64,000 bases of DNA from Candidatus Woesearchaeota archaeon (GCA_043803105.1 JAZDKJ010000012.1:32001-96000); one strand, 5' to 3'. Shown: positions 5,271-24,084, counted from the stretch's first letter. The notes: a model not told the origin generated them from the sequence alone. Made by a program: numbers and translations.

Positions 5271-5801
5271 ATGAGGTTGTTCATAGCTCTGGACTTTGTT
5301 GAGCATAAAGATTATTTTATTAAGCTACAAGAGGAGTTCAGTAAGCCTGGAAGATACAGCCTCCCCAAATCTTTTCATTTGACCCTGAAATTTCTTGGCG
5401 AGGTGCCGGATTCAAACATTTCCCAAATCAAGGATGCTCTTTCCAAGGTTTCATTCAAGCCCTTTAGCCTAAGATTGAATAGGTTGGGTGTTTTTCCGAG
5501 CCTTAGTTATGTTCGTGTTCTTTGGGTTGATGTCCTTCCCTTGGAAGAGGTTTCAACCCTTCAAAGGTCAATCGATGCTGCTTTGCGTGGATGGTTTGCT
5601 CCTGACAATAGGTTTCATCCTCATATTACACTAGCAAGGGTTAAGTCCATTGCTGACAAACAGAAATTTGATGAGCTGCTCAATAATCAGGTTGAGGTAA
5701 AGACTGTTGTCATTGAATCTTTTAACCTGATTAGAAGCGTTCTGTCTTCGAAAGGTCCTTCCTATGAGTTGGTTGATGGTTTTCGAGCGCAAGATATTTA
5801 A
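5271..5801 (+). CDS. thpR: RNA 2',3'-cyclic phosphodiesterase (2'-5' RNA ligase, 2H family)
   Basis: MRLFIAL, HLTLKFLG and PHITLAR (two HxT motifs). Confidence 0.95.
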   Translation: MRLFIALDFVEHKDYFIKLQEEFSKPGRYSLPKSFHLTLKFLGEVPDSNISQIKDALSKVSFKPFSLRLNRLGVFPSLSYVRVLWVDVLPLEEVSTLQRSIDAALRGWFAPDNRFHPHITLARVKSIADKQKFDELLNNQVEVKTVVIESFNLIRSVLSSKGPSYELVDGFRAQDI

Positions 5802-5825
5802 GCGCAGTTTCTCTAAACTTAATAA
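5730..5825 (+). repeat. Array boundary repeat R0 (native thpR 3' end plus spacer with TATA-like box)
   Basis: attagaagcgttctgtcttcgaaaggtccttcctatgag...gatatttaagcgcagtttctctaaacttaataa, homologous to 7463, 9308, 11041 and 12782. Confidence 0.85.
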
Positions 5826-7376
5826 ATGGTTTCAAAAAGGGGTGATTCTTACACTGTTCTTTATGGTGTTCTTGTTGTTTTGGTTGGCTTGATTGTGATT
5901 TTTGGCTTTCGTTCGATTGTTCAGTTGAACCAGAGTGCTCAGGATGTAAAGGTTTTGCAGTTCATTACAAGTTTGGATGAGGATGCACAGACTATGTCTT
6001 CTAAGGTTGGCTCTCTAACTCAATCAACCTACTCTCTTCCTATGGTTGTTAACGAGGTCTGTTTTGCTGATTTACAGACTTCACCTGAAAGTATTGGTAG
6101 TGCTCTTATCGGGAAATACTCTTTCATTAAACGCTCTGTCGAATCTGGTTCTGGTAAGAATGTTTTTTTGGTTGGTGACAAGTTTTTTGATTCGTATTCT
6201 GTTCCCAGCCTGCATTTAGATGATGGAGTCATGTTTGCTTGCCTGAATCCTGAGGCTAAGGTTTTGTCTCTTGACCTTAAGGGTTCTGCTAAAGGTGCTG
6301 TGCTTGTTAAGGGTTGGAGGGTTGAGCGCACTCTCTCTACCTCTGCGACTACTGATATTGTTTCTGCTGATAGTTCAGCATTAATGTCTGTTCCTGCCGG
6401 CGCTTCTGCCTCTCCAACACTTTCTGTTGAGGTTATCTCTCATCCAGGCTACGATTTCTTGAGTGAGGCCTATAAGTTTGGTCCATCAGGAACAGTTTTT
6501 GATCCGGCTGCAACCATTTCAATCTCCTTCAATCCCGCTGAGATAACAGTCTGTCCGCCTGGCAGGGCACAATTTGTCTTCAAGCTGTACGATGACAATA
6601 ATCAATTCATTGAGGACCTTCAGTATGATTCTGTTGATTGTGTTAGTCATGTTATGACTTTCAGGCTTGACCATTTCAGTTGGGGAGGCATTGCTGCTGT
6701 CCAGGCGACACAATATACGCTCAACGTTGTTATTAACAATGAGGGGACTGTAATAGCCAAGGTTGGTGGAAATATAGTTCCTTTACCGCTTACTGCTGAC
6801 TTCGGAGCTGTGGTTCACCTTGTGGCTGGTCCGAATTTTGTTGGGTGGAGTACCATTCCAGCTGTTGCGCCTTTTAGTTCAGCTAACACTCTCTATCAAA
6901 CGTTGACTGCGACAGGTACGATTTACGCCAATTTCCGTGCTAGTGGTCTTACGGGCAAATGGGCTAGTGTTTTAGCCAATGGATACAAGTGCAATGTCAA
7001 AAACACGTACATCGGAATTGGCTATCACGAGAGGGGAATACCGGGGGCCATAGATGTTGCCCCCAATCAAATAACCTACTTCATTATTGATCCAACCGGA
7101 TACACTGGACTTGATTATAGCGGCAGAAACATTGTCGTTAGGGCACTTGACTACGATCAAAGTAATACAGGCACGTCAAAAGATACGGTATCCAAAGCCA
7201 GATTGATTGTAGTGGATCGCAATGGCAATGAAATTGTAATTTATAATCTTGGTGGAGAAAATAACAATTTTGTTGGCACTGTTCAATGTGATGCCACCAC
7301 CAAAGATAGGATTTATATTGTTGAGCACAAGCAGGGAGATTTAAGAGGAGCTCAGATATCCTCCTGGTGGCCGTAA
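5826..7376 (+). CDS. Modular surface protein 1 (class III signal-like, ZU5-like HFSW domain, InlB-B-like repeat, variable tip)
   Basis: MVSKRG-DS plus TM helix; FGPSGTVF...LDHFSWG; YTLNVVINNEGTV...FVGWS...YANF; tip ends SSWWP. Confidence 0.8.
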   Translation: MVSKRGDSYTVLYGVLVVLVGLIVIFGFRSIVQLNQSAQDVKVLQFITSLDEDAQTMSSKVGSLTQSTYSLPMVVNEVCFADLQTSPESIGSALIGKYSFIKRSVESGSGKNVFLVGDKFFDSYSVPSLHLDDGVMFACLNPEAKVLSLDLKGSAKGAVLVKGWRVERTLSTSATTDIVSADSSALMSVPAGASASPTLSVEVISHPGYDFLSEAYKFGPSGTVFDPAATISISFNPAEITVCPPGRAQFVFKLYDDNNQFIEDLQYDSVDCVSHVMTFRLDHFSWGGIAAVQATQYTLNVVINNEGTVIAKVGGNIVPLPLTADFGAVVHLVAGPNFVGWSTIPAVAPFSSANTLYQTLTATGTIYANFRASGLTGKWASVLANGYKCNVKNTYIGIGYHERGIPGAIDVAPNQITYFIIDPTGYTGLDYSGRNIVVRALDYDQSNTGTSKDTVSKARLIVVDRNGNEIVIYNLGGENNNFVGTVQCDATTKDRIYIVEHKQGDLRGAQISSWWP

Positions 7377-7462
7377 AAAGAACGGCGGACAGCAGTTGAC
7401 CAATTAAAATTAACGAGGGCAGATTTCCCAAACACAATTTTTTACTTTTTCTGGAATGTTAT

Positions 7463-7556
7463 ATTCGAAGTTCTGTCCTCGGCAGGGCCTTCGTATGAGT
7501 TAATCGAAGGTTTTCGAGCGGAAGATATTTAAACGCAATTTCCCCCAACTTAATAA
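7463..7556 (+). repeat. Array boundary repeat R1 (displaced thpR 3' end remnant)
   Basis: Reads VLSSAGPSYELIEGFRAEDI* versus the ThpR C-terminus VLSSKGPSYELVDGFRAQDI*. Confidence 0.9.
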
Positions 7557-9191
7557 ATGGTTTCAAAAAGGGGTGATTCTTACACTGTTCTTTATTGTGC
7601 TGTTGTTGTTTTGGTTGGCTTGATTGTGATTTTTGGCTTTCGTTCGATTGTTCAGTTGAACCAGAGTGCTCAGGATGTAAAGGTTTTGCAGTTCATTACA
7701 AGTTTGGATGAGGATGCACAGACTATGTCTGCTAAGCTTGGCGCTCTAATGCAATCAACCTACTCTCTTCCTGGTGTGGTTAAGGAAGTTTGTTTTGCTG
7801 ATTTGTTGGCTTCTCCGGAATCTATTGGAAGCGTTGATATTGGGAATTATCCTTTCATCAAGCGTTCTGTCGAATCTGGCTCTGGCAAGAATGTCTTCTT
7901 GGTTGGTGACAAGTTTTTTGGTTCGTATTCTGTTCCTAGCCTTAATTTGGGTGATGGTGTTATGTTTGCTTGCCTGAATGCTGAAGGCAAGGTTTTGTCT
8001 GTTGCTTTGAGGGATTCTGCCAAAGGCACTGTGCTTGTTAAGGGTTGGAGGGTTGAGCGCAATTTATCCTCCTCTGCAAATACTGATATTGTCTCTGCCG
8101 ATGGATCTGCAACCTTATCTGTTCTTGCTGGCTCCTCTGCCTCTCCCACCCTCTCTATTGAGGTTATCCCGCATCCAGGCTACAATTTCTTGAGTGAGGC
8201 TTACAGGTTCGGCCCTTCTGGGACTGTTTTCACAGACCATGTCATTCTGGCTGTAAATTTTGACCCGACCATCTGTCCACCTGGTCCAGATGAGTATGTT
8301 TTCAGGCTTTTTGATGACAACAACCAGTTTGTAGAAGATATCAAATATGATTCTGTTGATTGTGTTAATCATGTTATGACTTTCAAGCTTGACCATTTCA
8401 GTTGGGGTGCAATTGCTGCTGTTCAGGAGGCACAATACACTTTCAACGTTGTCATTAACAATGGAGGGACTGTTATGGCCACGGTTGGTGGAAATATAGT
8501 CCCTTTACCGCTTACTGCTGACTTCGGAACTGTGGTTCACCTTGTGGCTGGTCCGAATTTTGTTGGGTGGAGTACCATTCCAGCTGGTGCGCCTTTTAGT
8601 TCAGCTAATACTTTCTATCAGACGTTGACTGCGACAGGTACGATTTACGCCAATTTCCGTGCTAGTCAAACTGTTCAGCCGCAGAAAGGCGAGTGGTATG
8701 GCATAATGCAGTCTGCCTACAAGATGGACCAGGATGTGCAGATAAGGGCTCCTGATGGCACGTGGGCGGCTGCCGGCCAGGGCTTTGGATATGGCTGCCA
8801 CCCTACTCCGGGAATATGCTCTCCTGACATGGTCTGGATATATCCCGGTCAGACTTTGTACTTCCTTATAGACATCAATTATTCAAAATCCTGGTCTTGG
8901 AATCCAGACTATTGGAAATACTGCGAGGGCAACTATGTCACGGTAAATATTTATGATTATAACCAGCGTCACACTGCAGGCTACTATGGCGTCGATTTGA
9001 TTGCGGTTGACGTTTACGGAAGCGAAATTCCCCTTCCATACAAGCCTTACTTTGGAAGCGCTGGGAATGGCGTATTCCAGGGGTATATCGGAACATCACA
9101 GCACTCCTCCGGAAGGCTGTACATCCTTAAAATCCATTCTTTGCTCAATGAACAGGCGCTGCTGAGGGTCAACTGGAGGTGCGGGAGATAA
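7557..9191 (+). CDS. Modular surface protein 2 (paralog, different tip)
   Basis: Near-identical N-terminus to 5826 gene, LDHFSWG, linker identical up to ANFRAS, then a divergent aromatic-rich tip. Confidence 0.8.
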   Translation: MVSKRGDSYTVLYCAVVVLVGLIVIFGFRSIVQLNQSAQDVKVLQFITSLDEDAQTMSAKLGALMQSTYSLPGVVKEVCFADLLASPESIGSVDIGNYPFIKRSVESGSGKNVFLVGDKFFGSYSVPSLNLGDGVMFACLNAEGKVLSVALRDSAKGTVLVKGWRVERNLSSSANTDIVSADGSATLSVLAGSSASPTLSIEVIPHPGYNFLSEAYRFGPSGTVFTDHVILAVNFDPTICPPGPDEYVFRLFDDNNQFVEDIKYDSVDCVNHVMTFKLDHFSWGAIAAVQEAQYTFNVVINNGGTVMATVGGNIVPLPLTADFGTVVHLVAGPNFVGWSTIPAGAPFSSANTFYQTLTATGTIYANFRASQTVQPQKGEWYGIMQSAYKMDQDVQIRAPDGTWAAAGQGFGYGCHPTPGICSPDMVWIYPGQTLYFLIDINYSKSWSWNPDYWKYCEGNYVTVNIYDYNQRHTAGYYGVDLIAVDVYGSEIPLPYKPYFGSAGNGVFQGYIGTSQHSSGRLYILKIHSLLNEQALLRVNWRCGR

Positions 9192-9307
9192 ATATCTCCC
9201 GGGACAAATATCTTCGATGAAATTTGCGTTTGGTTTTATTATTGGCAATTTATGCCTCATTTTTCTCTCGAATTCTGCACTGGCTCAGTCCCTTTCTGGC
9301 ATATTAT

Positions 9308-9401
9308 ATTCGAAGTTCTGTCCTCGGCAGGGCCTTCGTATGAGTTAATCGAAGGTTTTCGAGCGCAAGATATTTAAACGCAATTTCTCCCAACTTAATA
9401 A
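9308..9401 (+). repeat. Array boundary repeat R2 (thpR 3' end remnant)
   Basis: Near-identical to R1; reads VLSSAGPSYELIEGFRAQDI*. Confidence 0.9.
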
Positions 9402-10922
9402 ATGGTTTCAAAAAGTGGTGATTCTCATATTCTTCTTTACGGCGCCCTTGTTGTTGTAGTTGGTTTGATAGTTATTGTTGGTTTTCGTTCGATTGTTCAG
9501 TTGAACCAGAGTGCTCAGGATGCAGAGGTTCTGCAGTTCATAACAAGTTTGGATCAAGATGCACAAACTTTGTCTGCTAAGCTTGGCTCTTTAACGCAAT
9601 CAACCTACTCTCTTCCTGGTGCGGTCAAGGAAGTTTGTTTTGCCGATCTAAAGGCCTCTCGAGAATCTATTGGTGGGGTTGCTATTAGGAATTATCCTTT
9701 TATTGAGCGTTCTGTTGATTCTGGTGCTGACAAGAATGTTTTTTTGGTTGGTGATAATTTCTTTGAATCGTATTCTGTTGCCAGCTTAAACTTAGATGAC
9801 GGTGTTATGTTCGCCTGCATAAATACCGAAGGTAAGGTTTTACCTCTTGCCTTAAAAGGCTCTACAAAGGGTACTGTGCTTGTTAAGGATTGGAGGGTTG
9901 AGCGTGTTTTGGCTTCTTCTGCGACTACTGATATTGTTTCTGCTGATGGTTCTGCAACACTGTCTGTTCCTGCTGGTGCGTCTGTCTCTCCCACACTTTC
10001 TGTTGAGGTTATCTCTCATCCAGGCTACGATTTCTTGAGTGAGGCCTATAAGTTTGGTCCATCAGGAACAGTTTTTGATCCGGCTGCAACCCTTTCAATC
10101 TCCTTCAATCCCGCTGAGATAACAGTCTGTCCGCCTGATAGGGCACAATTTGTCTTCAAGCTGTACGATGACAATAATCAATTCATTGAGGACCTTCATT
10201 ATGATTCTGTTGATTGTGTGAATCATGTTATGGCTTTTAGGCTTGACCATTTTAGTTGGGGTGGGATTGCTGCTGTCCAGCCTGTGCAGGTTGTTGTTGC
10301 TGTGGAAAATTTGCCTAGCGGGGGGAGTGTTACAGCTAATGGGGTGGCCTGTCCAGCGACGTTATCGGTTCAACCAAACACCGTGGTGTATCTGGTTGCT
10401 GCTCCGGCGACTGCTTTTAGTGGGTGGAGTATCGGGTCAAGCCCAGTGAGAGCAACTGCGAGTTATTATTATACTGCAACCTCAACAGTTATGATCACTG
10501 CTAGGTTTGCCCCTAGGGTCGTCTCAGGCCATGGAAGCGGGACATTCGCCGATCCGTATAAACTAGACACGCTTACGTCTACTGGCTATTCGTATTATAC
10601 CTCCAGTCCCAAGGCAGAATTCGCCTTGCCTTCCGGCAAGATATATTATGAGGTTGACCCGTCAGCATATAGTAGTAATAAGAATTTCCAGTTTGTCCTA
10701 AAAGGATACAATAACCCTTTCATTAATGGTGTAACATTAACTGTTAGGAACAAAGCCACTGGCCAGGATATTTTAACAGAACAATATGTTTCCTCTGGCT
10801 GGACTGCAATATATGATAGGACAGATTCGTCTGCCTTTCCGTTTAGCACATACAAGTTTATTATGGGCATCAGCAACACCGGACCATCTGAACTGGCAGC
10901 TGTCTGGTGGTGGGCATACTAA
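9402..10922 (+). CDS. Modular surface protein 3 (paralog, different linker and tip)
   Basis: MVSKSG-DS plus TM, LDHFSWG, divergent InlB-B-like linker (GGSVTANG...FSGWS...ITARF), GSGTFADPY, tip ends WWWAY. Confidence 0.8.
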   Translation: MVSKSGDSHILLYGALVVVVGLIVIVGFRSIVQLNQSAQDAEVLQFITSLDQDAQTLSAKLGSLTQSTYSLPGAVKEVCFADLKASRESIGGVAIRNYPFIERSVDSGADKNVFLVGDNFFESYSVASLNLDDGVMFACINTEGKVLPLALKGSTKGTVLVKDWRVERVLASSATTDIVSADGSATLSVPAGASVSPTLSVEVISHPGYDFLSEAYKFGPSGTVFDPAATLSISFNPAEITVCPPDRAQFVFKLYDDNNQFIEDLHYDSVDCVNHVMAFRLDHFSWGGIAAVQPVQVVVAVENLPSGGSVTANGVACPATLSVQPNTVVYLVAAPATAFSGWSIGSSPVRATASYYYTATSTVMITARFAPRVVSGHGSGTFADPYKLDTLTSTGYSYYTSSPKAEFALPSGKIYYEVDPSAYSSNKNFQFVLKGYNNPFINGVTLTVRNKATGQDILTEQYVSSGWTAIYDRTDSSAFPFSTYKFIMGISNTGPSELAAVWWWAY

Positions 10923-11040
10923 TGAAAAAGCGGGAAAGGCAAAACGGGATGCTTTTCTGGTAGTCCTCCGTTTTTTTGATATGGCGCATTCTCCGGAAGC
11001 AGTTTTTCTTGCTTGTTAATCAAGTCGAACAGTTTAGCGA

Positions 11041-11123
11041 GTTCTTCATCAAGGCCCTTCATATGATTTGATTGATAGTTTTCCGACGAAAGATATTTAA
11101 GCGCAATTTCTCCCAATCATTGT
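11041..11123 (+). repeat. Array boundary repeat R3 (more diverged thpR 3' end remnant)
   Basis: Reads VLHQGPSYDLIDSFPTKDI*, followed by gcgcaatttctcccaa as in the other copies. Confidence 0.8.
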
Positions 11124-12695
11124 ATGACATTAAAAAGGGGCGATTCTCATACTGTTTTTTATGGTGCTCTTGTTGTTGTGGTTGGCTTGATTGTGATTTT
11201 TGGCTTTCGTTCAATTGCTCAGATGAGCCGGAGTGCTCAGGATGCAAAGGTTCTCCAGTTCATTACAAGTTTGGATGAGGATGCACAGACTATGTCTTCT
11301 AAGGTTGGCTCTCTAACTCAATCAACCTACTCTCTTCCCGGTGCTGTTAACGAAGTTTGTTTTGTTGATTTGCATGCTTCACCTGAAAGTATTGGTAGTG
11401 CTCTTATCGGGAAATACCCTTTTATTGAGCGTTCTGTTGATTCTGGTTCTGGCAAGAATGTTTTTCTGTTAGGTGACAAGTTTTTGGAATCATATTCTAT
11501 TCCCAACCTCAACCTGGACGATAATATTATGTTCGCTTGCGTGAATCCTGAGGCTAAGGTTTTATCTCTTGACCTTAAGGGTTCTGCTAAAGGTGCTGTG
11601 CTTGTTAAGGATTGGAGGGTTGAGCGCGCTTTGGCTTCTTTGGCAACTACTGATATTGTCTCTGCCGATGGATCTGCAACCTTATCTGTTCCTGCTGGCT
11701 CCTCTGCCTCTCCCATGCTCTCTATTGAGGTCATTGCTCATCCGGGTCAGGATTTTTTGAGTGAGGCGTACAGGTTTGGTCCTTCTGGTGCTGTTTTCAG
11801 CCAGCCCGTCACCCTTTCAGTCAGTTTTGACTCAGCTGTCTGCCCGCCAGCTAGGGATGAGTATATTTTCAAGCTTTTTGACGATAACAATCAGCTTATT
11901 GAAGACTTGCAGTATGATTCTGTTGATTGTGTGAATCATGTTATGACTTTCAGGCTTGATCATTTTAGTTGGGGAGGCATTGCTGCTGTCCAGACTCCGG
12001 TTTCTGCCGCTCAGGTGGCGATAAACACTCTCAACGTTGTCATTAACAATGGTGGGGTTGTTATGGCCGCGGTTGGTGGAAATGCAGTTGATTTGCCGTA
12101 CACTGGTGACTTCGGAACTGTGGTTCACCTTGTGGCTGGTCCAAGTTTTGTTGGGTGGAGTAACAGTCCAGCTGGTGCGCCTTTTAGTTCAGCTAACTCT
12201 CTCTATCAGACGTTGACTTCGACAGGTACGATTTATGCCAATTTCCGTGCTAGTGGTCTTACGGGCACGTGGGCTAGTGTCTTGGCTACTGGCTATAAAG
12301 ACAATACCCGCTTTACCAGGGGCGGCATTCCGATAGGTGGATGGGGATATTATTTAGATGCGACCCCATCTCAAGTCCCTGTTGCGGCGGGTGGAACGAT
12401 ATACTTTGTCATTGATCCCAATGCATACACTGGACTGGACTGGACAGGGAGAGCGATTCGTGTCCGCGCAGTTGATTATGACCAGACCAATTCCGGTTCG
12501 TCCATCGAGAAGCAGACAAACGCCCGTTTGATTACTGTAGACAGAGATGGTAATGAGTTATCTGCCCAAACTTTGGCAGGTGATAGGTATCAGTTTTCAG
12601 GGACAGTCTATTACACCAGACCTAGCAAGATTTACATCATCGAAGTGACACAGGGGGATTTGAGAGGAGCTTATTTTTCTTCTTGGTGGCCGTAA
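11124..12695 (+). CDS. Modular surface protein 4 (tip homologous to protein 1)
   Basis: MTLKRG-DS plus TM, LDHFSWG, ANFRASGLTG.WASVLA.GYK, ends QGDLRGAYFSSWWP. Confidence 0.8.
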   Translation: MTLKRGDSHTVFYGALVVVVGLIVIFGFRSIAQMSRSAQDAKVLQFITSLDEDAQTMSSKVGSLTQSTYSLPGAVNEVCFVDLHASPESIGSALIGKYPFIERSVDSGSGKNVFLLGDKFLESYSIPNLNLDDNIMFACVNPEAKVLSLDLKGSAKGAVLVKDWRVERALASLATTDIVSADGSATLSVPAGSSASPMLSIEVIAHPGQDFLSEAYRFGPSGAVFSQPVTLSVSFDSAVCPPARDEYIFKLFDDNNQLIEDLQYDSVDCVNHVMTFRLDHFSWGGIAAVQTPVSAAQVAINTLNVVINNGGVVMAAVGGNAVDLPYTGDFGTVVHLVAGPSFVGWSNSPAGAPFSSANSLYQTLTSTGTIYANFRASGLTGTWASVLATGYKDNTRFTRGGIPIGGWGYYLDATPSQVPVAAGGTIYFVIDPNAYTGLDWTGRAIRVRAVDYDQTNSGSSIEKQTNARLITVDRDGNELSAQTLAGDRYQFSGTVYYTRPSKIYIIEVTQGDLRGAYFSSWWP

Positions 12696-14845: not shown

Positions 14846-14918
14846 GAAAATCGTTGGCCTCCTGAACCTTAAATAGTTTTTGGAAAACATTAAATACTCC
14901 CCTTCCAAAATCTTTCAG

Positions 14919-15839
14919 ATGCAAAAAAGGGGTCAGATAACCATTATTCTGGTTCTAGTCGTTTTCATCGTCATCATCCTCTCTATTGTCATTTACCTGA
15001 ATTCAGTCAAGAGTCAGAGGGGCATTGAGACCTCAACCTACAAGGCAGTTGGCTCGCCGCTTGATGCAACTCCCATAAAGTTATATCTGGATTCTGTGTT
15101 CGCCCAGACTGTGGAGCACTCCCTTGCCACAATCGGAGTCAATGGTGGCTACATCAGCATTAACGTTAATGAATCATATAATGAGACAGGCTTCCCAGAT
15201 TATGTCATCTACGAAGGTAGCAAGATTCCTTACTACACTAGGGATTGGGATTTGAGTGGTAGCGTGACACCGAATGAGGTACGTTTTCTTCCGCTTCAGA
15301 ATATCACTGACAGGTTGAGGCGTTATGTGCTTTTTTGGGTTGGAAACCAGTCCAATTTCTCTTTTTTCAGGGAGCACAGCTACATCGTTTATGCACCAAA
15401 TATTTCCTTTCAGGCAATCTCCTATAATCTTACCAAGGCAAGCCTTAGCTATACAAAAGCTAGACTCAATCTTTCAGTAAACGCGAATGATGAGGATGTT
15501 GCCTTTATGCTTTCTTACCCTATTATAGTCTTAAAACGGGAGGGCTCTACCGAACTGGTTGACTTCACAGACATTGTTCCTTATCCTTTGAAGGATGTTT
15601 ACCAGAATATCAGCTTCCTGTTGAACGAGATAGTTTCGGAACAACCCCTACCTTACGACCTTGCAGCTAATTGCAACAAGTACACTGCTGTTAATGACAT
15701 AAGGCTCACTGACCTTGGGGCAAGCGGGCTCATTGTTAACTTTTCCAGGATCATATCTCCGGATTACAATTACACCTTTAGGTTTGGGCTCCGGGATGTT
15801 TCAGTTACAGGCGAGTGCAGAAGCATCCGCACATCCTAA
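14919..15839 (+). CDS. Class III signal peptide (prepilin-like) surface protein
   Basis: MQKRG-QITIILVLVVFIVIILS; many N-x-S/T sequons. Confidence 0.75.
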   Translation: MQKRGQITIILVLVVFIVIILSIVIYLNSVKSQRGIETSTYKAVGSPLDATPIKLYLDSVFAQTVEHSLATIGVNGGYISINVNESYNETGFPDYVIYEGSKIPYYTRDWDLSGSVTPNEVRFLPLQNITDRLRRYVLFWVGNQSNFSFFREHSYIVYAPNISFQAISYNLTKASLSYTKARLNLSVNANDEDVAFMLSYPIIVLKREGSTELVDFTDIVPYPLKDVYQNISFLLNEIVSEQPLPYDLAANCNKYTAVNDIRLTDLGASGLIVNFSRIISPDYNYTFRFGLRDVSVTGECRSIRTS

Positions 15840-15873
15840 ATGTTTATATATTCTCTTCTTATCTTTTCTTCCA

Positions 15874-17373
15874 ATGAAAAGGACTTACCTGGTGCTAGCT
15901 TTGATTTTCGCTTTTTCTGTAGCCCTCAGGCTTTTCTTTGCTTTGAGTGTGCAAAACTTCAGCGATAATGAGGCATATTTTGTTCTTCGCCAGGTTGAGA
16001 GCATCAGGCAGACAGGTCTGCCCTTGTATCATGATCCGCTGAGCTATGATGGTAAGCAGCAGATTTTTCTTCCGCTCTATTATTATTCCCTTTCCATCTT
16101 CAGTTTTTTCCTGCCTGTACAGCTCGTGCTAAAGATTATTCCCAATCTCTTTGCGTCCTGTCTTGTTTTCGTGGTCTATGCCATAACCTTACACATCACT
16201 CGCAACCCTGCCGCTAGTTTATGGGCTGCTTCGGTCTCGGCAGTTATCCCGGTGTTCACAAGCCTTACAGCAAATTCTGCATCAATATACACATTTGTTG
16301 TGCCATTGTTGTTTCTAATCTTGTATTTTTTCATGCGTGCTGCCCAGGAAAAGGCTTTTGTATGGTTTTTTGTTATCAGTTTTTTTACCCTTGCCTTCAC
16401 AAGCGCGATTGCGGCCCTTGTCGCATTGGGTTTTGTGTTCTATCTGTTGATCGCAAAACTTGAGGGTTTGCGCACCACCAAGGCAGAACTGGAGGTCACC
16501 ATTTTTTCAGTGCTTTTCATTCTTTGGTTGTATGTTTTGGTTTTCAAGAAAATTTTGTTGACATACGGTGCCTCTGTACTTTTCCAGAACATTCCCTCTG
16601 CTCTTATGTCACAGTATTTCCGAAATATCACAATTGTTGGTGCTGTCAATCAGGTAGGTCTTTTGCCATTGTTCGTTGGGACAGTCATGCTCTACCACTA
16701 TCTCTTCCGGATAAAGAGCAAGTCCATCTATATGCTTATAGGGTTTACCTTTGCTGTCTTCCTGCTCTTATGGCTGAAGGTTTTATCTTTCGGCGGTGGC
16801 CTAATGGTGCTTGGCTCTGCCTTCACAATCCTTTTTGGCAAGTCCTTGGCATCCTTCCTTGACTACATCGAGAAGACCAATCTTCTTCGCTTCAAGATGT
16901 ATTTTGCAGCTGGTGCTGTGATCTTGTTGGTTGCATCCTCTTTAGGTCCTACCCTGTTCTATTATAACCAAGAGTCTAAGAAGGCTTTCAATGCAGATGA
17001 AATAGATGCACTCCAGTGGTTGGCAAACAATAGTGAGCCACAATCTGTTGTGCTCTCAACCTTGCAGGAGGGTAATCTTGTCACAGGCATTGCTCATAGG
17101 GCAGACGTGATGGACCAGAATTTCTTGCTTGTGCCCAACATTGACCAGCGCCTGTCAGACCTCGATACAATTTTTTCTACCTCCTCGGAAATCGAAGCTG
17201 TCGATCTTCTCACAAAGTTCCATGTTGATTACATTTTTTTTTCTGACTATGCTAAGCTGAAGTACAAGAGGACTTCCCTTGGTTACACAGATGATTTCAA
17301 CTGTTTTCAATTGGTGTACGATAAGCAGGTCCAGATTTATCGTACAAGGTGTAAACTGGAGACTATAACATGA
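15874..17373 (+). CDS. GT-C-fold polytopic membrane glycosyltransferase-like protein
   Basis: About 12 TM helices, SDNEAYF after TM1, soluble C-domain ALQWLANNSEPQSVVLS...VDYIF. Confidence 0.7.
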   Translation: MKRTYLVLALIFAFSVALRLFFALSVQNFSDNEAYFVLRQVESIRQTGLPLYHDPLSYDGKQQIFLPLYYYSLSIFSFFLPVQLVLKIIPNLFASCLVFVVYAITLHITRNPAASLWAASVSAVIPVFTSLTANSASIYTFVVPLLFLILYFFMRAAQEKAFVWFFVISFFTLAFTSAIAALVALGFVFYLLIAKLEGLRTTKAELEVTIFSVLFILWLYVLVFKKILLTYGASVLFQNIPSALMSQYFRNITIVGAVNQVGLLPLFVGTVMLYHYLFRIKSKSIYMLIGFTFAVFLLLWLKVLSFGGGLMVLGSAFTILFGKSLASFLDYIEKTNLLRFKMYFAAGAVILLVASSLGPTLFYYNQESKKAFNADEIDALQWLANNSEPQSVVLSTLQEGNLVTGIAHRADVMDQNFLLVPNIDQRLSDLDTIFSTSSEIEAVDLLTKFHVDYIFFSDYAKLKYKRTSLGYTDDFNCFQLVYDKQVQIYRTRCKLETIT

Positions 17374-18740
17374 GAAGATACCTTGTCTATGTTGCATCAT
17401 TGCTTGCTGTTTTTTCCTTGCTATTGCCCTTCTATTTGAGGTATGTTGAATCCCAGCCTCTAGTTTTCGCTGGCGAGTCATATTATAATCTTAGGATTGC
17501 ATCTCTTATACAGAAGTCTGGTATTCCACATTATGACTTAATGTTGTGGCAACCTAGGCCTTACCTGATTAACCCTTATCATCTGGTATTGGCAGGTTTT
17601 TTTCTTCTATTTACCCATATCCAGACCTCGATACTATTTCCTGTTCTCTTAGGAGCTCTCTCATTTGTCATTTTTGGCATGCTGCTTAAGAGCTTCTCTG
17701 TTTCCTCTCATGTCACTCTGGCATCCCTAGTTATGCTTGCCTTCAGCCCGCCATTTGTGCACACCTTCACTGTGTCATCACCAATTGCCCTTTCTGCAAC
17801 TATAGTCCTCCTTGGTTTGTACCTTCTGTGTTCAGAGCAAGCCTTCGCTAAGTGGCTCGGTATCCTTTCCTTGTCTATAGTTCCTTTTTTCAGTTTTTCT
17901 TTCGCTGTTGTCTCAATAGTGGTCCTGCTTTCTGTGGAAAAGTACAGGAAGAATGCAATTGCCGTGCTTCCGGTTATTGTTCTTACGCTTGTCTCTCTTG
18001 TTCTGCAGCTGCCCACAGTTCATATTCCACAGATTCATCTGTTTTTTTCTGACCTGGGCAGCCAGTTCGGGTTCGGCCTGTTTAATGTCATTCTTTGCTT
18101 CCTCGGGCTGATTCTTGCATGGCCCAAGAAGTCTGGCTTGCTGTCATGGTTTGTGGTTGGGCTGTCAATTATCTCTGTCTCATTCCTTGATCTTGGATCT
18201 CTCGTCCTCCTCAATTACCTTGTTTCCGTGGCCGCAGCCTTTGCCTTTGTTCGTTTATTGAAAATGCGCTGGGATCTTCTGCAGATAAGGTTTATGTCCA
18301 TTACTCTCATTGTCTGTGGTCTGCTTTTTTCCTTTGTAACTTTTGAGACCTCTCTCGCCTCCTCTGCTCCAACAGAAGGTCTGGAGCAAGCTCTCTCTTG
18401 GCTGTCTACGCAAGAGACTTCAGCGGTTTTTAGCCACCCATCTTTGGGTTTCTTCATTCAGGCTGATGCAGGGAAAAAAGTGCTTGCTGATGATCTAACT
18501 ATAGATCAAAAAATACTTAATGACTCCAATACATTGTTTTACTCCAGGAGCCTGCAGAAGACCAAGGAGATCTTGTCAAAATACAATATATCGCATATTC
18601 TTATCTCTCCAGAGATGAAGGTTGGTTTGGTTTGGAATGAACCAGAACAAGGTCTCCTATTCTTACTCCGGAATAACGAAACATTTAAAAGTGTTTACAA
18701 CAAGTCTCAAGTCCTGGTTGTTTCGTACTCTGGTGGTTAG
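17370..18740 (+). CDS. GT-C-fold membrane protein (paralog of upstream gene)
   Basis: GESYYNLRIA, multi-TM core, ALSWLS...AVFS...YNISHIL C-domain. Confidence 0.65.
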   Translation: MRRYLVYVASLLAVFSLLLPFYLRYVESQPLVFAGESYYNLRIASLIQKSGIPHYDLMLWQPRPYLINPYHLVLAGFFLLFTHIQTSILFPVLLGALSFVIFGMLLKSFSVSSHVTLASLVMLAFSPPFVHTFTVSSPIALSATIVLLGLYLLCSEQAFAKWLGILSLSIVPFFSFSFAVVSIVVLLSVEKYRKNAIAVLPVIVLTLVSLVLQLPTVHIPQIHLFFSDLGSQFGFGLFNVILCFLGLILAWPKKSGLLSWFVVGLSIISVSFLDLGSLVLLNYLVSVAAAFAFVRLLKMRWDLLQIRFMSITLIVCGLLFSFVTFETSLASSAPTEGLEQALSWLSTQETSAVFSHPSLGFFIQADAGKKVLADDLTIDQKILNDSNTLFYSRSLQKTKEILSKYNISHILISPEMKVGLVWNEPEQGLLFLLRNNETFKSVYNKSQVLVVSYSGG

Positions 18741-19971
18741 ATGATAAGATATATACTTTGGGGTGTCTCATTTATCACCCTTTATGTTTCTCTGGTCTGG
18801 CTTAGCTTCATGTACTTGAATCCATTTCAGCACAAGCGACTTTTTTCATATCCCAGCATTACTGTTGTAATACCTGCTTATAATGAAGAGCGCACTGTTG
18901 TCGATACAATTAAATCTGTTGCTTCTGCCTCTTATCCAAAAGGAAAGCTTAGTCTGGTTGTGGTTAATGATGGCAGCACTGATCATACTTCAGCTGTTGC
19001 CAAAGAATATATCCGGTCCGCCAGGATTAAGAACGCAATTGTCATAGATAAACCACAATCGGGCAAGGCAGCCGCACTTAATACTGCCCTCAAAAGCACT
19101 TCGACTGAATTGTTTGCCTGCGTGGATGCAGATTCTTTGATTGACAAACATGCCTTGCTGCAATTAATGCACCACTTCGAAGACCCAAAGAATGCTGCTG
19201 TGATAACTGCCTTGAAGGTGTATAAGCCCAAGAAGCTCTTGGAAAAGGTACAGCATTTTGAATACCTGTTGGGCATTATTACCCGGAAGATTCGTTCCTC
19301 AATCAATACCCTGGCAATGACCCCCTGGCGTTTTGAGCGTTTACAGAACTAATTTACTACAAGATCTCGGGGGTTTTGATGAGCATAATATTACCGAGGA
19401 TTTTGAGATTGCCATGCGACTGAAGTTTCATGGTTATAACATTCAGCTCGAGACTAAAAGCATCACGTACACTAATGTACCCGACACGTTCCGCGCGCTA
19501 AAGAGGCAACGCGTTAGATGGTTCAGGGGCTATATCTTCAACCACATAAAATATAAGAGTATGTTCTTTGATCGGAATAATAAGTTCATGGGGTATTTCC
19601 AGCTACCCTTGAACATCATCTCTATTGGTATACTCCTCCTCAGCACAACACTCATAGGGTATGGGACCTTTACGACTGTGAGGGAGCTCATCCAACGGGC
19701 TCTCTTGATTAAGGGGTATATCCCCAGCCTGTTTTACATACCTCCCCTAAAAGAGATAATCCTTGGCCATGACATTCAGATCATGTTTCCAATATATATA
19801 GGCGCAATTGGAGGTTTTTACCTTTTCTATGTTGCTCACAAGGAGACAAACGAAAAGTTTAAGCACCCTCTCTCGATTTGGCTTTATTTCACAATCTTTC
19901 CCTTGCTTAATTTTTATTATTGGGTTTGCTCACTGGTGCAGGAGGTCTTTAGGTCCAAGAGAAAATGGTGA
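18741..19971 (+). pseudogene. Processive GT2 glycosyltransferase split by a frameshift at the C5 tract 19321-19325
   Basis: ORF1 has IPAYNEE, VNDGSTD, GKAAALN and VDADS; ORF2 has ITEDF and QRVRW. Removing one C gives MTPGVLSVYR, joining them. Confidence 0.8.
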
Positions 19972-20609
19972 AGCGCTTTGCAAAGCATGTTTTTGTAGTC
20001 ACATTGGTACTTCTGGTTGTCGTTTTTGTCACCGGCCTGCTCTTTGGTAGGTCTCTTGGCACTTCAAGGGAGGTTGAAATCACAAGGTTGATTCAGCGTA
20101 ATGAGCTTAATGCAGAGAGCTTCTTGATTGAGCAGGACCTGTTCAAGAACCTTGACAAGAGCAATTGTGAGCTTGTCAGGATAAGGCTTACTGACATGTC
20201 TAATGAGCTTGGAAAGACTGGACGAGTGCTTGTCCAGAACAATTCAAGAAGCTCACTTGGCGCTGAAGAATTTGCTTTTCTCAAGCTAAAGTATCACTTG
20301 ATGCAGGTAAGGTCTTACCTGTTGTTTGAGCGCCTCAAGGATAAGTGCAATATCACATCAAACGTGATTTTGTACTACTATGGCATCAATGATAAGGACT
20401 CTGCCGAACAGGGCAAGATACTTGACCAGGTGGTAAAGGATTACCCTGTGTCTGTTTTTGCTATTGAGTACAATTATTCCCCCCAGCTCAGGTTCCTTGA
20501 GGCTTTCTATAATGTGACTGCCACTCCGACCATTGTTCTGGATTTTGGTCGCATCCACATGGGATTGGCTGATTACGATACCATCACCAGTGAATTGACA
20601 AAGCCATAA
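19965..20609 (+). CDS. Membrane-anchored protein with C-terminal thioredoxin-like fold (no CxxC)
   Basis: N-terminal TM; ILYYY...SAEQGKILD...YNVTATPTIVL. Confidence 0.6.
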   Translation: MVKRFAKHVFVVTLVLLVVVFVTGLLFGRSLGTSREVEITRLIQRNELNAESFLIEQDLFKNLDKSNCELVRIRLTDMSNELGKTGRVLVQNNSRSSLGAEEFAFLKLKYHLMQVRSYLLFERLKDKCNITSNVILYYYGINDKDSAEQGKILDQVVKDYPVSVFAIEYNYSPQLRFLEAFYNVTATPTIVLDFGRIHMGLADYDTITSELTKP

Positions 20610-22693
20610 TGCAGCGCGCTTATCAAAAGCACATTTTCTTGACAAGCCTACTTTTGACTCTTTCAATTTTTACGATGGGGATCATTATTAGTTACTTCAT
20701 GGATTTCGTAAGGATTGCCGAGATTACCAAGGTCATAGAGAAGAATGAACTTGACAGTGAGGCTTATTTTCTTCAGCAGGATTTTCTTGCAGTCTCTGGT
20801 GCCAATCAATGTGCTCAAATAGAGCAGCGCCTGACCAGTCTGAAGGAGGAGGTAAGGAAGGTTGGTATTGACCTTTCCAATTATGGTAGCAAGGGTTTTT
20901 TCAAGAAAAAAGATTATGATTACCTTAAGCGCAAGTATTTTCTTTTGGAGTTGCAGTTTCTCACGCTTGTGAACGGTGTTAACGACCGCTGTGGCAGCAC
21001 CTACATCCCGATCATTTTTTTCTACAAGATTGATGATGCCTTAAGTGAGCGTCAGGGCTATGTGCTTGATGACATCAATGAGGCTTACCCTGCCCAAGTT
21101 GTAGTTGTTTCTCTTGACAAGGATTATGTCGATGAGCCCATTGTGAGTTATTTGGTCAAAAAGTACAATGTTACGAAAGCGCCCACTGTTATTATTGACA
21201 ACAACATCAAGCAAGAGAGACTCCTGTACACAGGCGAGCTTAACGCCACAATTTTAAGATTGCTGCGCAGGACTGATGAGTATTCCAAGGGCACAAATTT
21301 TGATTTTGTCATTGATGCTACAAAGACAAATAAGTCCCTTCTCATGCTAAGATATAAGCAGCTTGTTGAGATCAACATCTCTCCCTTCGCAAAGGGTGAT
21401 ATTCTTCTTGCTCTTGGCAGACTTTCCAACAATGAGTCCTTGAAGTGCCTTGCCTTGCGATATTATGATGAGTATAAGCCGCAGCAACCAGAGGAGAGAG
21501 CTTTGTTGTTTGAAACCTATGCTTCGATTGGCTGCGGTCGAAACAGAAAGGCTTTTCTCCTTGAAGCCTCCAGGATCTGGAAAGCCTTAGGGAATAATGC
21601 TCGCTCTGAAATCGAGGAGAGGTTATCACAAAGAGAAGAACCTCTGCTGGTTTTTGAACCAAGCAGGCTCAATGCCACAAGAATCCCTCGTTTCTCCAAG
21701 GTTACTATTGGACGGACGGGTTTTTCCATTACCAAGTCCGATGTCCTGGTTTCGCAGGTTGACCGGGTGAATCGAGATTGGTTATCTGGCCAGCTTAATT
21801 CCTCCCCGTTCTCACAAAATCTCCTCACAGTGTTCTCTGAGAGATATACTCTTCCAGAGTTCGAACTCTTGCCAGATATTGGTTGGCACGAAGGTGCAAG
21901 GATAAAGGAGATACAAAAGATTGGTCTGAAGCGCTATACTGCCACCGGAACTCTTGTAGCCAAGCGCAATGGAACATGGTTTGCCCCTGATGAAAAAGGG
22001 ATTTTCCGCTTTGAGGTGCCCCTTGATAAAGTCCTCTATCCTACAACCAGGTTCTTGTCAGAAGACCTTGCTGTGATTGTTGATACCCATGGCGTAAACA
22101 TGCTTGTTGAACAAGCCTTAAGATTGAACGCAAGTGTTGTGATCGGTTGTTGTGACAATCCCTCAAAGGTTGCTGCAGCAAAATACCTTGCGGGCAAGGG
22201 CATCAAGGTCGTTTGTTTCACAGATAAGTATCTCCCCCTTATTCTAGGCTCAAACCTTTCAATACTTGGCAGCCCCCCTATGTTGAGGAATGGTAACTCT
22301 GTCTTGCTTGGCAGCCAGCCTGTCTCGATACTCTCCTCAGATGTGCTGCTTGTTGAGGATGTGGCAAACTATTCACAGGTCCAGAGCTATTATGATACGC
22401 CTGCGCGCTATTTCAGTCAGCTTAACGCTTCTCTTGATGTTCATTACTTTGGGCTTTCTGCCTCAAGTGGTCCAGAAGATTTCATCGATGCTGCCGTTAA
22501 GCTTAACGCGAATGTGGTTGCTGCCAGGGTTTATTCGCTTGAGGACTATCTGGCCATTAGCTCCTGGCTCCGAGAAGACATGCATCACAGGGCAATCCTG
22601 TTTCACTCAGCGCCATATCCTTTTGGGTTAATCATTTATGAAGAATTCAGGGACCAAACGTCTTTTGATGATATTCATCCGGAGTTTTCATGA
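20609..22693 (+). CDS. Membrane-anchored protein: same thioredoxin-like module plus a large C-terminal region
   Basis: IIFFY...SERQGYVLD...YNVTKAPTVII parallels the upstream gene; C-part has VDTHG and GCCD. Confidence 0.6.
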   Translation: MQRAYQKHIFLTSLLLTLSIFTMGIIISYFMDFVRIAEITKVIEKNELDSEAYFLQQDFLAVSGANQCAQIEQRLTSLKEEVRKVGIDLSNYGSKGFFKKKDYDYLKRKYFLLELQFLTLVNGVNDRCGSTYIPIIFFYKIDDALSERQGYVLDDINEAYPAQVVVVSLDKDYVDEPIVSYLVKKYNVTKAPTVIIDNNIKQERLLYTGELNATILRLLRRTDEYSKGTNFDFVIDATKTNKSLLMLRYKQLVEINISPFAKGDILLALGRLSNNESLKCLALRYYDEYKPQQPEERALLFETYASIGCGRNRKAFLLEASRIWKALGNNARSEIEERLSQREEPLLVFEPSRLNATRIPRFSKVTIGRTGFSITKSDVLVSQVDRVNRDWLSGQLNSSPFSQNLLTVFSERYTLPEFELLPDIGWHEGARIKEIQKIGLKRYTATGTLVAKRNGTWFAPDEKGIFRFEVPLDKVLYPTTRFLSEDLAVIVDTHGVNMLVEQALRLNASVVIGCCDNPSKVAAAKYLAGKGIKVVCFTDKYLPLILGSNLSILGSPPMLRNGNSVLLGSQPVSILSSDVLLVEDVANYSQVQSYYDTPARYFSQLNASLDVHYFGLSASSGPEDFIDAAVKLNANVVAARVYSLEDYLAISSWLREDMHHRAILFHSAPYPFGLIIYEEFRDQTSFDDIHPEFS

Positions 22694-24084
22694 GGAAGCC
22701 CTACCTGCCGATCGTTATTGTTCTGTTTGTTTCGCTTGTCGTAAGGCTTTACTTCTTTTTTTCTTATCACGACATGTGGTGGGATGCCGCAGTCTACATT
22801 GGCATGGGCAAATACATGCTTACTCTTGGCCATCTTGGTTTGTGGGAGCCGATTAGGCCTGTCTTCTGGCCGCTGATTCTGGGATTGTTGTGGTCTACAA
22901 GATTGAATGTTGTTGTGCTTGGCAATTTGGTTCAGCTTTTAATGAGCATAGGTATAATCTATCTTGTTTATGCCATTGCAGCAAATGCCTTTGATAGGAG
23001 GACAGCTGTCTTGGCTGCGGCAATTTTTTCTTTTGGTTCGATTTTTTTCATTTTAGGTTATCATTTGTATACTGAAATTCCCGCCACTTTTTTTCTGCTT
23101 CTTGCGCTATTTTTTCTTTTCAGGCAATCTTTTTTCACGTCCGGGTTATTTTTTGCCTTCTCAGTTTTGACCAAGTTTACAATGATGGTTTTTATTGTTC
23201 CTATCATCATTTTTTTGTTCTTTAATCCTCGTTTTAGGTCATTTATGTTTTTTGGTTTAGGTGCCCTTGTACCCTTAGTGCCAGCTCTTGCAGTCAATCT
23301 TTGGTTTTACAGCTCTCCATTTTTTCCATTTCTCGAAGCCAATCGCGTAATCAATCAGGTTCTCGGCTGCAATGTCCTGAGTTTCAAGCCATGGTATTTT
23401 TATTTGCGGATGATGATATCTGAGAGTGCGCTTTACGTCCTTTTGCCAATTGGTTTTCTTATTTCCCTTCGCAGGCGAAAGCGCGAAGATTTGTTGATTT
23501 GTGTCTCCCTTGTGTTGCCTCTAGTGTATTTGTCAACCCTCCATTGTCGTGATTACCGCTATCTTCTGGCCTTTCTGCCTTTCGCTTCAATGCTTGTTGG
23601 CCTCGCGCTTGCTTTTATGCTTGCTAGGCTCCCTGAAAGGTTTTTCTTGCTGCTTGTTATAATGATTGCCATTACTGGATTTGTTTCTGCTTTCTCTTTT
23701 TACAGGCTTAATGAGCCGTCTTCAGAGCCCGCTGTTGCAAGAGACTTTTACAGGTTTTTGGAGAACCGCACTGCAGAACACGAGATTTGGGTTAGTAATC
23801 CTATTGTGGCCCTTTATGCAGATAAGAAGGTAAACCTGGTCTATTATCCTGTCTTTGACTCCAACCTCATCTTTAGTTTCAATCAGTACATTCGTCATCA
23901 TTTGGCAAATGTAAGCTATGTTTTCCTTGACAGTTGCGGTGGAGGTATCATCTGCCCACCCAAGGACACTGCATGTCTATCAGAATCCGATGATCTGGTT
24001 CGTTTTCTTTACAATAATTCCAGGTTGGTGTATTACTCCAGCTCTGCAGGATGCGCCGATTATGTTTTCTTTAACCAAGCTTGA
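22690..24084 (+). CDS. GT-C (PMT/ArnT-like) membrane glycosyltransferase
   Basis: WWDAAVY, RPVFWP, YTEIP, TKF and RDYRYLL motifs; multi-TM. Confidence 0.8.
   Translation: MRKPYLPIVIVLFVSLVVRLYFFFSYHDMWWDAAVYIGMGKYMLTLGHLGLWEPIRPVFWPLILGLLWSTRLNVVVLGNLVQLLMSIGIIYLVYAIAANAFDRRTAVLAAAIFSFGSIFFILGYHLYTEIPATFFLLLALFFLFRQSFFTSGLFFAFSVLTKFTMMVFIVPIIIFLFFNPRFRSFMFFGLGALVPLVPALAVNLWFYSSPFFPFLEANRVINQVLGCNVLSFKPWYFYLRMMISESALYVLLPIGFLISLRRRKREDLLICVSLVLPLVYLSTLHCRDYRYLLAFLPFASMLVGLALAFMLARLPERFFLLLVIMIAITGFVSAFSFYRLNEPSSEPAVARDFYRFLENRTAEHEIWVSNPIVALYADKKVNLVYYPVFDSNLIFSFNQYIRHHLANVSYVFLDSCGGGIICPPKDTACLSESDDLVRFLYNNSRLVYYSSSAGCADYVFFNQA

Follow-up and report, generated by a model that had tools for sequence, protein, structure and literature searches.

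This study examined four tandem paralogous genes in a 64,000-nucleotide stretch of a Candidatus Woesearchaeota archaeon genome (GCA_043803105.1 JAZDKJ010000012.1:32001-96000; hereafter the window, with positions counted from its first letter). The results suggest, with a probability that we place at about 0.7, that these genes encode surface proteins combining a prepilin-like signal, a pilin-like module, a self-cleaving ZU5 domain, a B-repeat-like domain, and a diverging tip. This explanation is based on a sequence motif, homology, a predicted fold, the register of the motif with known cleavage sites, and a prepilin peptidase gene in the genome. From these, we infer cleavage, continued association of the fragments, release, shedding, adhesion, binding by the tip, pilin processing or assembly, and incorporation into a pilus.

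Open reading frame (ORF) calling revealed four same-strand (+) genes encoding 516, 544, 506, and 523 amino acids, and in an alignment of the four proteins, paralogs 2 to 4 were 60%-73% identical to paralog 1. Paralog 1 (5826..7376, +), whose domain limits were taken from the profile search, the realigned family, the structural model, and the segment-wise comparison described below, comprises a class III-like signal and anchor, a stalk, the ZU5 domain, the B-repeat-like domain, and the variable tip. Paralog 2 (7557..9191, +) carries the ZU5 domain at 8052-8423 and an HFS triplet at 8394-8402. The corresponding features are located at 9897-10277 and 10248-10256 in paralog 3 (9402..10922, +), in which the leader reads KSG/D (a slash marks a putative cleavage point throughout), and at 11619-11990 and 11961-11969 in paralog 4 (11124..12695, +).

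The sequence AY(K/R)FGPSG(T/A)VF was found in all four paralogs (residues 215-225) and was followed approximately 58 residues further on by (R/K)LDHFSWG, again in all four. The histidine codons start at nucleotides (nt) 6672, 8394, 10248, and 11961 in paralogs 1 to 4, respectively. A preliminary description of this DNA had given the first two positions exactly. It had also correctly placed the motif between the membrane anchor, here residues ~10-28, and the variable tip; identity between paralogs in this C-terminal part is 20%-55%. In paralog 1, the predicted scissile bond is F284/S285 of H283-F284-S285 (6672..6680, +), on the basis of a beta-turn in the structural model and the structural register described below. 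Because the ZU5 segment is 72%-91% identical pairwise among the four paralogs, the invariance of the motif within them is weak evidence by itself.

We then analyzed the site across the wider family. When 1.84 billion representatives were searched with a profile built on residues 160-300 of all four paralogs, 272 proteins scored at E ≤ 1e-3. Realignment of 153 proteins yielded 184 domain rows from 152 proteins, of which 145 reached the triplet, 35 stopped short of it, and 4 ended within it. The profile used to align these 145 rows includes HFS, which favors this register. In them, the +1 residue was S, T, or C in 144 (S 123, T 19, C 2, G 1), the -1 residue was F in 132, L in 12, and V in 1, and the -2 residue was H in 105. 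The exchange of Ser, Thr, and Cys at +1 beside a near-fixed aromatic residue is the pattern that would be expected of an acyl-shift (N-to-O/S) nucleophile. The ratio of nonsynonymous to synonymous substitution (dN/dS) in the ZU5 segment of the paralogs, 0.12-0.31, indicates purifying selection. In the closest subfamily, Phe284 is invariant and Ser285 is nearly so, and the residue before them may be S, G, D, T, or N (position 283). The HFSW motif, previously termed invariant, is invariant in the four paralogs but not in the family, in which a fifth paralog reads SFS and the nearest relatives read SFS, GFS, or DFS.

The joint domain of paralog 1 (residues 166-292; 6321..6701, +) is almost certainly a beta-sandwich of the ZU5/GAIN-B (MAIN) type in both fold and homology. 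A word-indexed homologue search returned nothing beyond the four paralogs, and a PDB search with a single sequence returned nothing relevant. The five best matches of a 66-homologue profile against PDB sequences were ZU5 domains of ZO-1 (E 0.0077) and ankyrin. We scanned with Pfam 55 of the 149 listed homologues from outside the window, a non-random sample hand-picked from the higher ranks with chosen lower ones; 30 of the 55 matched Pfam ZU5 at E ≤ 0.01, and 24 exceeded the 21-bit cut-off, on the aligned region. An AlphaFold2 model of the domain generated from the 66-sequence alignment had a pLDDT of 91.5 and a pTM of 0.84, and the top Foldseek rows for this model were ankyrin ZU5, UNC5b, and GAIN (probability 1.00, TM-score 0.56-0.67, and E-values of just 2e-3 to 1e-2). 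The ZU5-type domain claimed in the preliminary description is borne out by the transitive Pfam evidence, the profile search of PDB sequences, and the fold search; structure prediction, the check that it had suggested, revealed a ZU5-type fold.

VIA, a structure search that is independent of Foldseek and reports the first and last aligned residues of each row, placed ZU5, GAIN, or FIIND domains in 16 of its 19 best rows; the other three were axonemal-doublet entries. The Z scores were 12.7, 12.2, and 12.0 for ankyrin ZU5 (best row: root-mean-square deviation 3.2 Å, 123 residues aligned), 10.3 and 10.0 for CD97 GAIN, 9.4 for CELSR1 GAIN, 8.9 for CARD8 FIIND, 8.7 for Gpr126 GAIN, 8.6 for both UNC5b and BAI3 GAIN, 7.9 and 7.6 for NLRP1 FIIND, and 7.2 for ZO-1 ZU5. 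Nup98 had a Z score of 4.5, a weak match that is neutral on kinship. In the AlphaFold2 model, HFS lies in the turn joining the last two strands (276-283 and 286-291). Eight VIA rows stop at model residue 125, which corresponds to Phe284, including NLRP1 chain 6x6c_E, which stops at residue 1212. The GPR56 chain in the same table ends at 382, which we take to be the cleavage site of its G-protein-coupled receptor (GPCR) proteolysis site (GPS). These row ends place HFS at the structural position of known F/S and L/T cleavage sites, in support of the earlier proposal. Self-cleavage of the ZU5 domain is predicted, and we consider it likely.

The paralogs start with a putative class III (prepilin)-like signal and a hydrophobic helix (5826..5909 in paralog 1, +; MVSKRG/DSYTVLYGVLVV...), identified on the basis of the sequence itself, its KRGQ relatives, and the Peptidase_A24 gene of the genome. 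The start reads MVSKRG/DSYTVLYGVLVVLVGLIVIFGF, in which a basic leader ending in G is followed by a hydrophobic helix of approximately 20 residues. Relatives in which the parts follow one another as they do here begin with KRGQ, KKAQ, or RKSQ and continue with a hydrophobic stretch. A regular expression search for a K/R-G/A/S-Q/D/H leader and a hydrophobic stretch ahead of ZU5 identified 20 of the 153 proteins (the 4 paralogs and 16 relatives). The host genome encodes a Peptidase_A24 prepilin peptidase on contig C5 (54.4 bits) and has two matches to the T2SSE ATPase (122.3 and 52.4 bits). The prepilin-like N-terminus claimed earlier is upheld by the homology to KRGQ-type relatives and by this peptidase gene. 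On balance, we slightly favor class III processing of the paralogs, and we regard their incorporation into a filament as possible but doubtful.

The stalk (residues 31-165; 5916..6320, +) is a pilin-like globular module with conserved Cys79 and Cys139, as indicated by profile matches and Atlas look-alikes. A profile of residues 1-300 had matches at E ≤ 1e-5 in 201 of 301 sampled genomes of the phylum, a tally that includes two genomes flagged as unpublished (G243 and G244), on which none of our conclusions rest. Nearly all listed matches span positions ~2-162 only, and their ORFs are mostly 155-230 amino acids long. The Atlas look-alikes of the stalk are Nanobdellota clusters of approximately 160 amino acids (score 0.95, TM-score 0.80). 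In other genomes of the phylum (loci L022, L027, L029, L035, L036, L037, L041, and L042), stand-alone stalk homologues of ~160 amino acids adjoin one or two genes with class III-like starts (~340 and ~160 amino acids), which suggests that this small pilin-like gene cluster is conserved. Because the small homologues stand alone and adjoin class III-like genes, the stalk is a common stand-alone pilin-like protein of the phylum to which ZU5 and a head have been added here. A further Nanobdellota Atlas cluster consists of 385-amino-acid proteins in which the stalk module is fused to a Peptidase_M64 domain; this fusion fits one scaffold bearing different heads. The nearest family leads for the module are a Class_IIIsignal cluster at 0.81 and DUF7289 at a TM-score of 0.56-0.61.

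Similar to the archaeal class III pilin-like proteins described in PMC13705601, the paralogs have a short basic leader, G, A, or S at -1, a hydrophobic helix of approximately 20 residues, a prepilin peptidase of the A24 family in the genome, and variable C-terminal domains. They differ from the archaeal type IV filament adhesin-like proteins of that source, whose available text reports no autoproteolytic joint, and their N-terminal module falls outside the curated pilin families.

The proposed mechanism can be set out as follows. After export, the A24 peptidase might trim the protein behind Gly6, and the N-terminal helix would hold the protein either in the membrane or within a fibre resembling a pilus. 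Once folded, the ZU5 domain would cut its own chain at Phe284/Ser285: the Ser hydroxyl, aided by His283, would attack the preceding peptide bond in a strained beta-turn, and the resulting N-to-O acyl shift would yield an ester that is then hydrolysed by water. The C-terminal fragment (S285 to the end) would remain bound after the cut because its first strand (WGGIAAV) also completes the anchored sandwich as the last strand. If a bound head were pulled, this strand could slip out and the head would come free. That release depends on force and serves attachment is a tentative proposal, to which we assign somewhat less than an even chance.

The closest counterparts of this joint are the GAIN-B-like "MAIN" domains, which Brogan and Rudner (10.64898/2026.05.12.724683, May 2026) describe as widespread in bacteria and archaea. 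According to this preprint, Bacillus subtilis YfkN is cut between F and S of HFS, as determined through Edman degradation; its S1346A substitution abolishes cleavage and Thr restores it; and its fragments co-purify and co-elute. Nearly all bacterial MAIN domains tested there cleave, and release by shear is proposed. The likeness to GPS cleavage, first put forward as a concept, is one of homology beyond analogy, with GAIN domains among the best fold matches and bacterial HFS homologues cleaving between F and S. The paralogs share with MAIN proteins a GAIN-B-like beta-sandwich, H-F-S in the last beta-turn, tethering to the surface, and variable domains, which are adhesion or enzyme domains in MAIN proteins (10.64898/2026.05.12.724683). 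However, virtually all MAIN proteins analyzed in the preprint are ordered as signal peptide, cargo, MAIN, and C-terminal anchor (sortase or SLH), whereas the present proteins have a prepilin-like anchor at the N-terminus and carry their cargo at the C-terminus. The main text of the preprint contains no use of "ZU5" or "pilin". We infer that MAIN is the prokaryotic ZU5 family, because the ZU5 profile retrieves cargo-ZU5-SLH proteins of the typical MAIN layout.

In bacteria, ZU5 autopeptidases were already predicted by Zhang et al. (2012, PMC3482391), who placed them close to the N-terminus of RHS toxins and also assigned them to other surface proteins. Those domains resemble the present ones in their position toward the N-terminus of large surface proteins, their variable C-terminal parts, and the predicted basal cut releasing the distal part, but they are bacterial, coupled to SpvB/RHS and TcdB/TcaC export, and a prediction; the section on ZU5 in PMC3482391 gives no class III anchor and no archaeal DPANN examples. 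With the GAIN/GPS region of adhesion GPCRs, the paralogs share the fold (Z 8.6-10.3), an H-hydrophobic-S/T triplet in the last turn, and a non-covalent two-chain product, which is predicted here; they differ in the absence of the helical GAIN-A subdomain and of a seven-transmembrane partner. Here, most of the sandwich would remain with the anchor and its last strand would leave with the head, which is the reverse of adhesion GPCRs and published MAIN proteins.

Among the eukaryotic proteins, D'Osualdo et al. (2011, PMC3210808) identified NLRP1 Ser-1213 and CARD8 Ser-297 as the nucleophiles of SF/S, the counterpart of HFS in PIDD and Nup98. The paralogs and their relatives share with these proteins the HFS (PIDD, Nup98) or SFS (NLRP1, CARD8) site, which in the eukaryotic proteins is cleaved between F and S (PMC3210808), and a FIIND-like fold (Z 7.6-8.9); where the fifth paralog and the nearest relatives read SFS, they mirror the FIIND of NLRP1 and CARD8. 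In contrast, FIIND proteins, PIDD1, and Nup98 are cytosolic eukaryotic signalling proteins, and no UPA domain follows ZU5 here. SEA/SEAL domains, named in the preprint (10.64898/2026.05.12.724683), also self-cleave in a beta-turn, keep their fragments held in a sheet, and are proposed force sensors, but they have a different fold and motif and gave no match in fold searches of the ZU5 model.

The autoproteolytic joint is thus of an already known kind, predicted in 2012 (Zhang et al.) and shown in bacteria in 2026. The preliminary interpretation holds for the fold, the register of the site, the prepilin-like start, and the DPANN source, but not for the novelty of the idea, which both of these works precede. 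A literature search on ZU5 and archaea, ZU5 and pilin, and DPANN pilin autoproteolysis found no prior description of this arrangement, and the archaeal, N-terminally prepilin-anchored, inverted version and the mosaic four-gene array appear to be undescribed in the literature searched.

Several results weigh against the proposed architecture. Pfam ZU5 (PF00791) directly matched none of the four proteins at E ≤ 1. The best six-frame scores of Pfam ZU5 in the genome, 13.9 and 12.3 bits, fall under the 21-bit gathering score; these matches sit exactly on the GPxG region of paralog 4 (13.9 bits, E 0.07, residues 207-238) and of the fifth copy. Of the 55 scanned homologues, 25, including most of the class III-type relatives, had no ZU5 match at E ≤ 0.01. 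A full-length AlphaFold2 model generated from the four paralogs alone was poor (pLDDT 41.9). With regard to the anchor, the putative signal cleavage would leave Asp at +1, where the relatives have Gln; the stalk module matched no Pfam or NCBIfam family and no curated pilin or class III signal family; and no pilus assembly genes were found beside the array, the A24 and T2SSE genes being located elsewhere. With regard to the joint, His at -2 is missing in the fifth paralog and in most of the nearest relatives. Many ZU5 domains, including those of ankyrin, UNC5, and ZO-1, are non-cleaving. The cleavage tests in the preprint, as far as its text describes them, cover bacterial proteins only and no archaeal member (10.64898/2026.05.12.724683). 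Membership of the present domains in the tested MAIN set rests on the shared fold, the motif, and Bacillota SLH-anchored homologues.

Alternatively, the proteins may not be pilins: the N-terminal helix could be a signal anchor that stays uncut, or one that is cut without polymerising, and would simply tether a protein in which the ZU5 joint may still work. The Asp at +1, the KSG of paralog 3 in place of the relatives' KRGQ, the lack of Pfam and NCBIfam pilin matches, and the housekeeping flanks of the array (RadA, TRAM, LigT, ribosomal protein S2, and RadB instead of pilus genes) would all agree with this explanation, but the N-terminal module is homologous to stand-alone proteins of ~160 amino acids that have K-[GAS]-Q leaders and adjoin class III-like genes, and the genome encodes the A24 peptidase and T2SSE ATPases. 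We regard a non-pilin tether as a serious, if minority, possibility.

It is considerably less probable, in our judgment, that the ZU5 domain stays in one piece and serves as a structural or binding spacer, as in ankyrin, UNC5, and ZO-1, and that HFS is a remnant of the fold. The best fold matches are indeed the non-cleaving ankyrin ZU5 domains, the -2 histidine varies among the nearest relatives, and the published tests are confined to bacterial members, as the preprint's text presents them (10.64898/2026.05.12.724683). However, the non-cleaving ZO-1 has lost the nucleophile, with HFG opposite the hFS of the profile, whereas S, T, or C is kept in 144 of 145 rows here and these residues interchange. 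According to PMC3210808, the backbone is strained by the Phe, which acts as a buried anchor, and the residue at -2 has little influence in Nup98 (His) and CARD8 (Ser); nearly all tested bacterial HFS domains were cleaved (10.64898/2026.05.12.724683). A polymorphic-toxin-like or effector array, in which ZU5 cleavage would free the C-terminal cargo as a secreted factor as in the RHS proposal of Zhang et al. (2012), shares the orientation of RHS toxins with ZU5 near the N-terminus and a variable C-terminus (PMC3482391) and could draw on the mosaic paralogs, the HINT module ending relative P0008, and the RHS proteins among the homologues, but it is quite improbable, since the tips are beta-rich domains of 140-175 amino acids that match no toxin family in Pfam or Atlas, and the spacers of 180-210 nt between the paralogs contain no ORF longer than 43 amino acids and therefore leave no room for immunity-type genes.

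A self-cleaving, surface-anchored protein could be extended into a more specific model, which we consider unlikely as a whole: a mechanical fuse of inverted GAIN type, carried by a type IV pilin scaffold whose pilin-like subunits display interchangeable binding heads. After self-cleavage, each head would be held by one donated beta-strand only; when loaded, the head would expose its hydrophobic SWGGIAAV peptide and stay on the partner cell, and the symbiont would detach; and recombination among the four paralogs would reshuffle anchors, joints, and heads. A life in attachment to other cells is generally ascribed to DPANN archaea. If the joint is force-releasable, it would constitute a concrete mechanism of DPANN detachment, carry the GAIN/ZU5/MAIN principle over to archaea and to proteins with the chain in the reverse orientation, and bear on the claim that the force-sensing GAIN/ZU5/MAIN fold is ancient.

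The predicted released fragment begins with a B-repeat-like beta domain (residues 293-372; 6702..6941, +), which weakly resembles InlB B-repeats (Flg_new_2, E 0.043 in paralog 2 and 0.078). This domain is 79%-89% identical in amino acids among paralogs 1, 2, and 4 and 36%-41% identical to paralog 3. The variable tip of paralog 1 (residues 373-516; 6942..7373, +) is a beta-rich domain without a known family. The tips, which form the last 140-175 residues, matched no Pfam family, and Atlas returned weak beta-sandwich look-alikes for the tip (TM-score 0.49-0.56). Pairwise amino acid identity between tips is 20%-30%, with the exception of paralogs 1 and 4 (55%).

The nearest partner of paralog 1 changes by segment. 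It is paralog 2 in the anchor (97% nt identity) and the B-repeat segment (93%), paralog 3 in the ZU5 segment (92%; synonymous divergence, dS, 0.17), and about equally paralog 4 (88%) and paralog 2 (86%) in the stalk. The paralogs are mosaics, and this change of partner suggests recombination or gene conversion within the array.

A fifth paralog of 1869 amino acids (P0016; contig C6, L005:1015-3408) in the same genome has the same KRGQ anchor and stalk, the SFS site in its ZU5 domain, and then an extended cargo that is rich in Cys and matches CARDB weakly. A narrow ZU5 profile revealed the domain in at least 7 of the 301 genomes at E ≤ 1e-3. We inspected 12 ZU5 loci of the phylum, two of which encode an identical protein; eight distinct proteins, all of the same order, reach the site, which reads HFS in four, HFT in three, and GFS in one. 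Seven of the eight are much longer and have a class III-like start and another stalk, and the GFS protein (348 amino acids) shares the stalk of the paralogs. The combination of a prepilin-like anchor, a putative self-cleaving joint, and cargo therefore recurs on at least two scaffolds. The metagenomic protein P0008 (2255 amino acids) has a KRGQ start, the same stalk, ZU5 with SFS, PKD domains, and a terminal Hint module, a layout reminiscent of polymorphic toxins on a prepilin-like anchor. Paenibacillus SLH proteins and RHS proteins were among the homologues, with P0028 and P0109 ordered as cargo, ZU5, and SLH. YfkN was not among the sequences returned by the search for longer homologues.

The array is located among housekeeping genes, with RadA, a TRAM protein, and a LigT/ThpR phosphoesterase upstream and ribosomal protein S2 and a RadB-like ATPase downstream. 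A repeat of approximately 100 nt is conserved ahead of each paralog (5717..5825, ~7448-7556, ~9293-9401, and ~11015-11123, +) and makes up most of the spacers. Each copy includes the last ~65 nt of the LigT/ThpR gene, the original 3' end of which precedes paralog 1; given this recurrence, the duplication unit started within that gene. A ATATTTAA stretch at the ThpR stop, ~27 nt 5' of each ATG, may be a TATA box with a promoter role. Open frames of 100-135 amino acids lie on the opposite strand (-) over each stalk (6029-6331, 7847-8149, 9692-9994, and 11327-11734) and are most likely by-products of conserved coding sequence. Further downstream (14880-24084, +), a cluster headed by a protein with a KRGQ class III-like start continues with several large ORFs that match no Pfam family and with two glycosyltransferases, a split one of family 2 and one of the PMT_2 type.

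The host genome is 1.56 Mb long and 96% complete, and judging from its sequences, it is that of a Woesearchaeota (DPANN) archaeon. A look-up of sequencing runs for the locus listed none. The window RadA had 80 kept relatives at 65%-78% identity, titled Woesearchaeota, Nanoarchaeota, or Nanoarchaeia in 55 cases, "(uncultured) Methanosarcinales" in 20, "archaeon" only in 4, and Acidobacteriota in 1. The 55 records agree with the DPANN source that had been assumed at the outset. The 20 "Methanosarcinales" records, 19 of which are third-party assemblies, and the one "Acidobacteriota" record are metagenome-assembled genomes (e.g., loci L046, L056, and L057) with a RadA that is 66%-76% identical to that of the window; because this RadA is so close to Woesearchaeota RadA, the labels on those records are probably mistaken.

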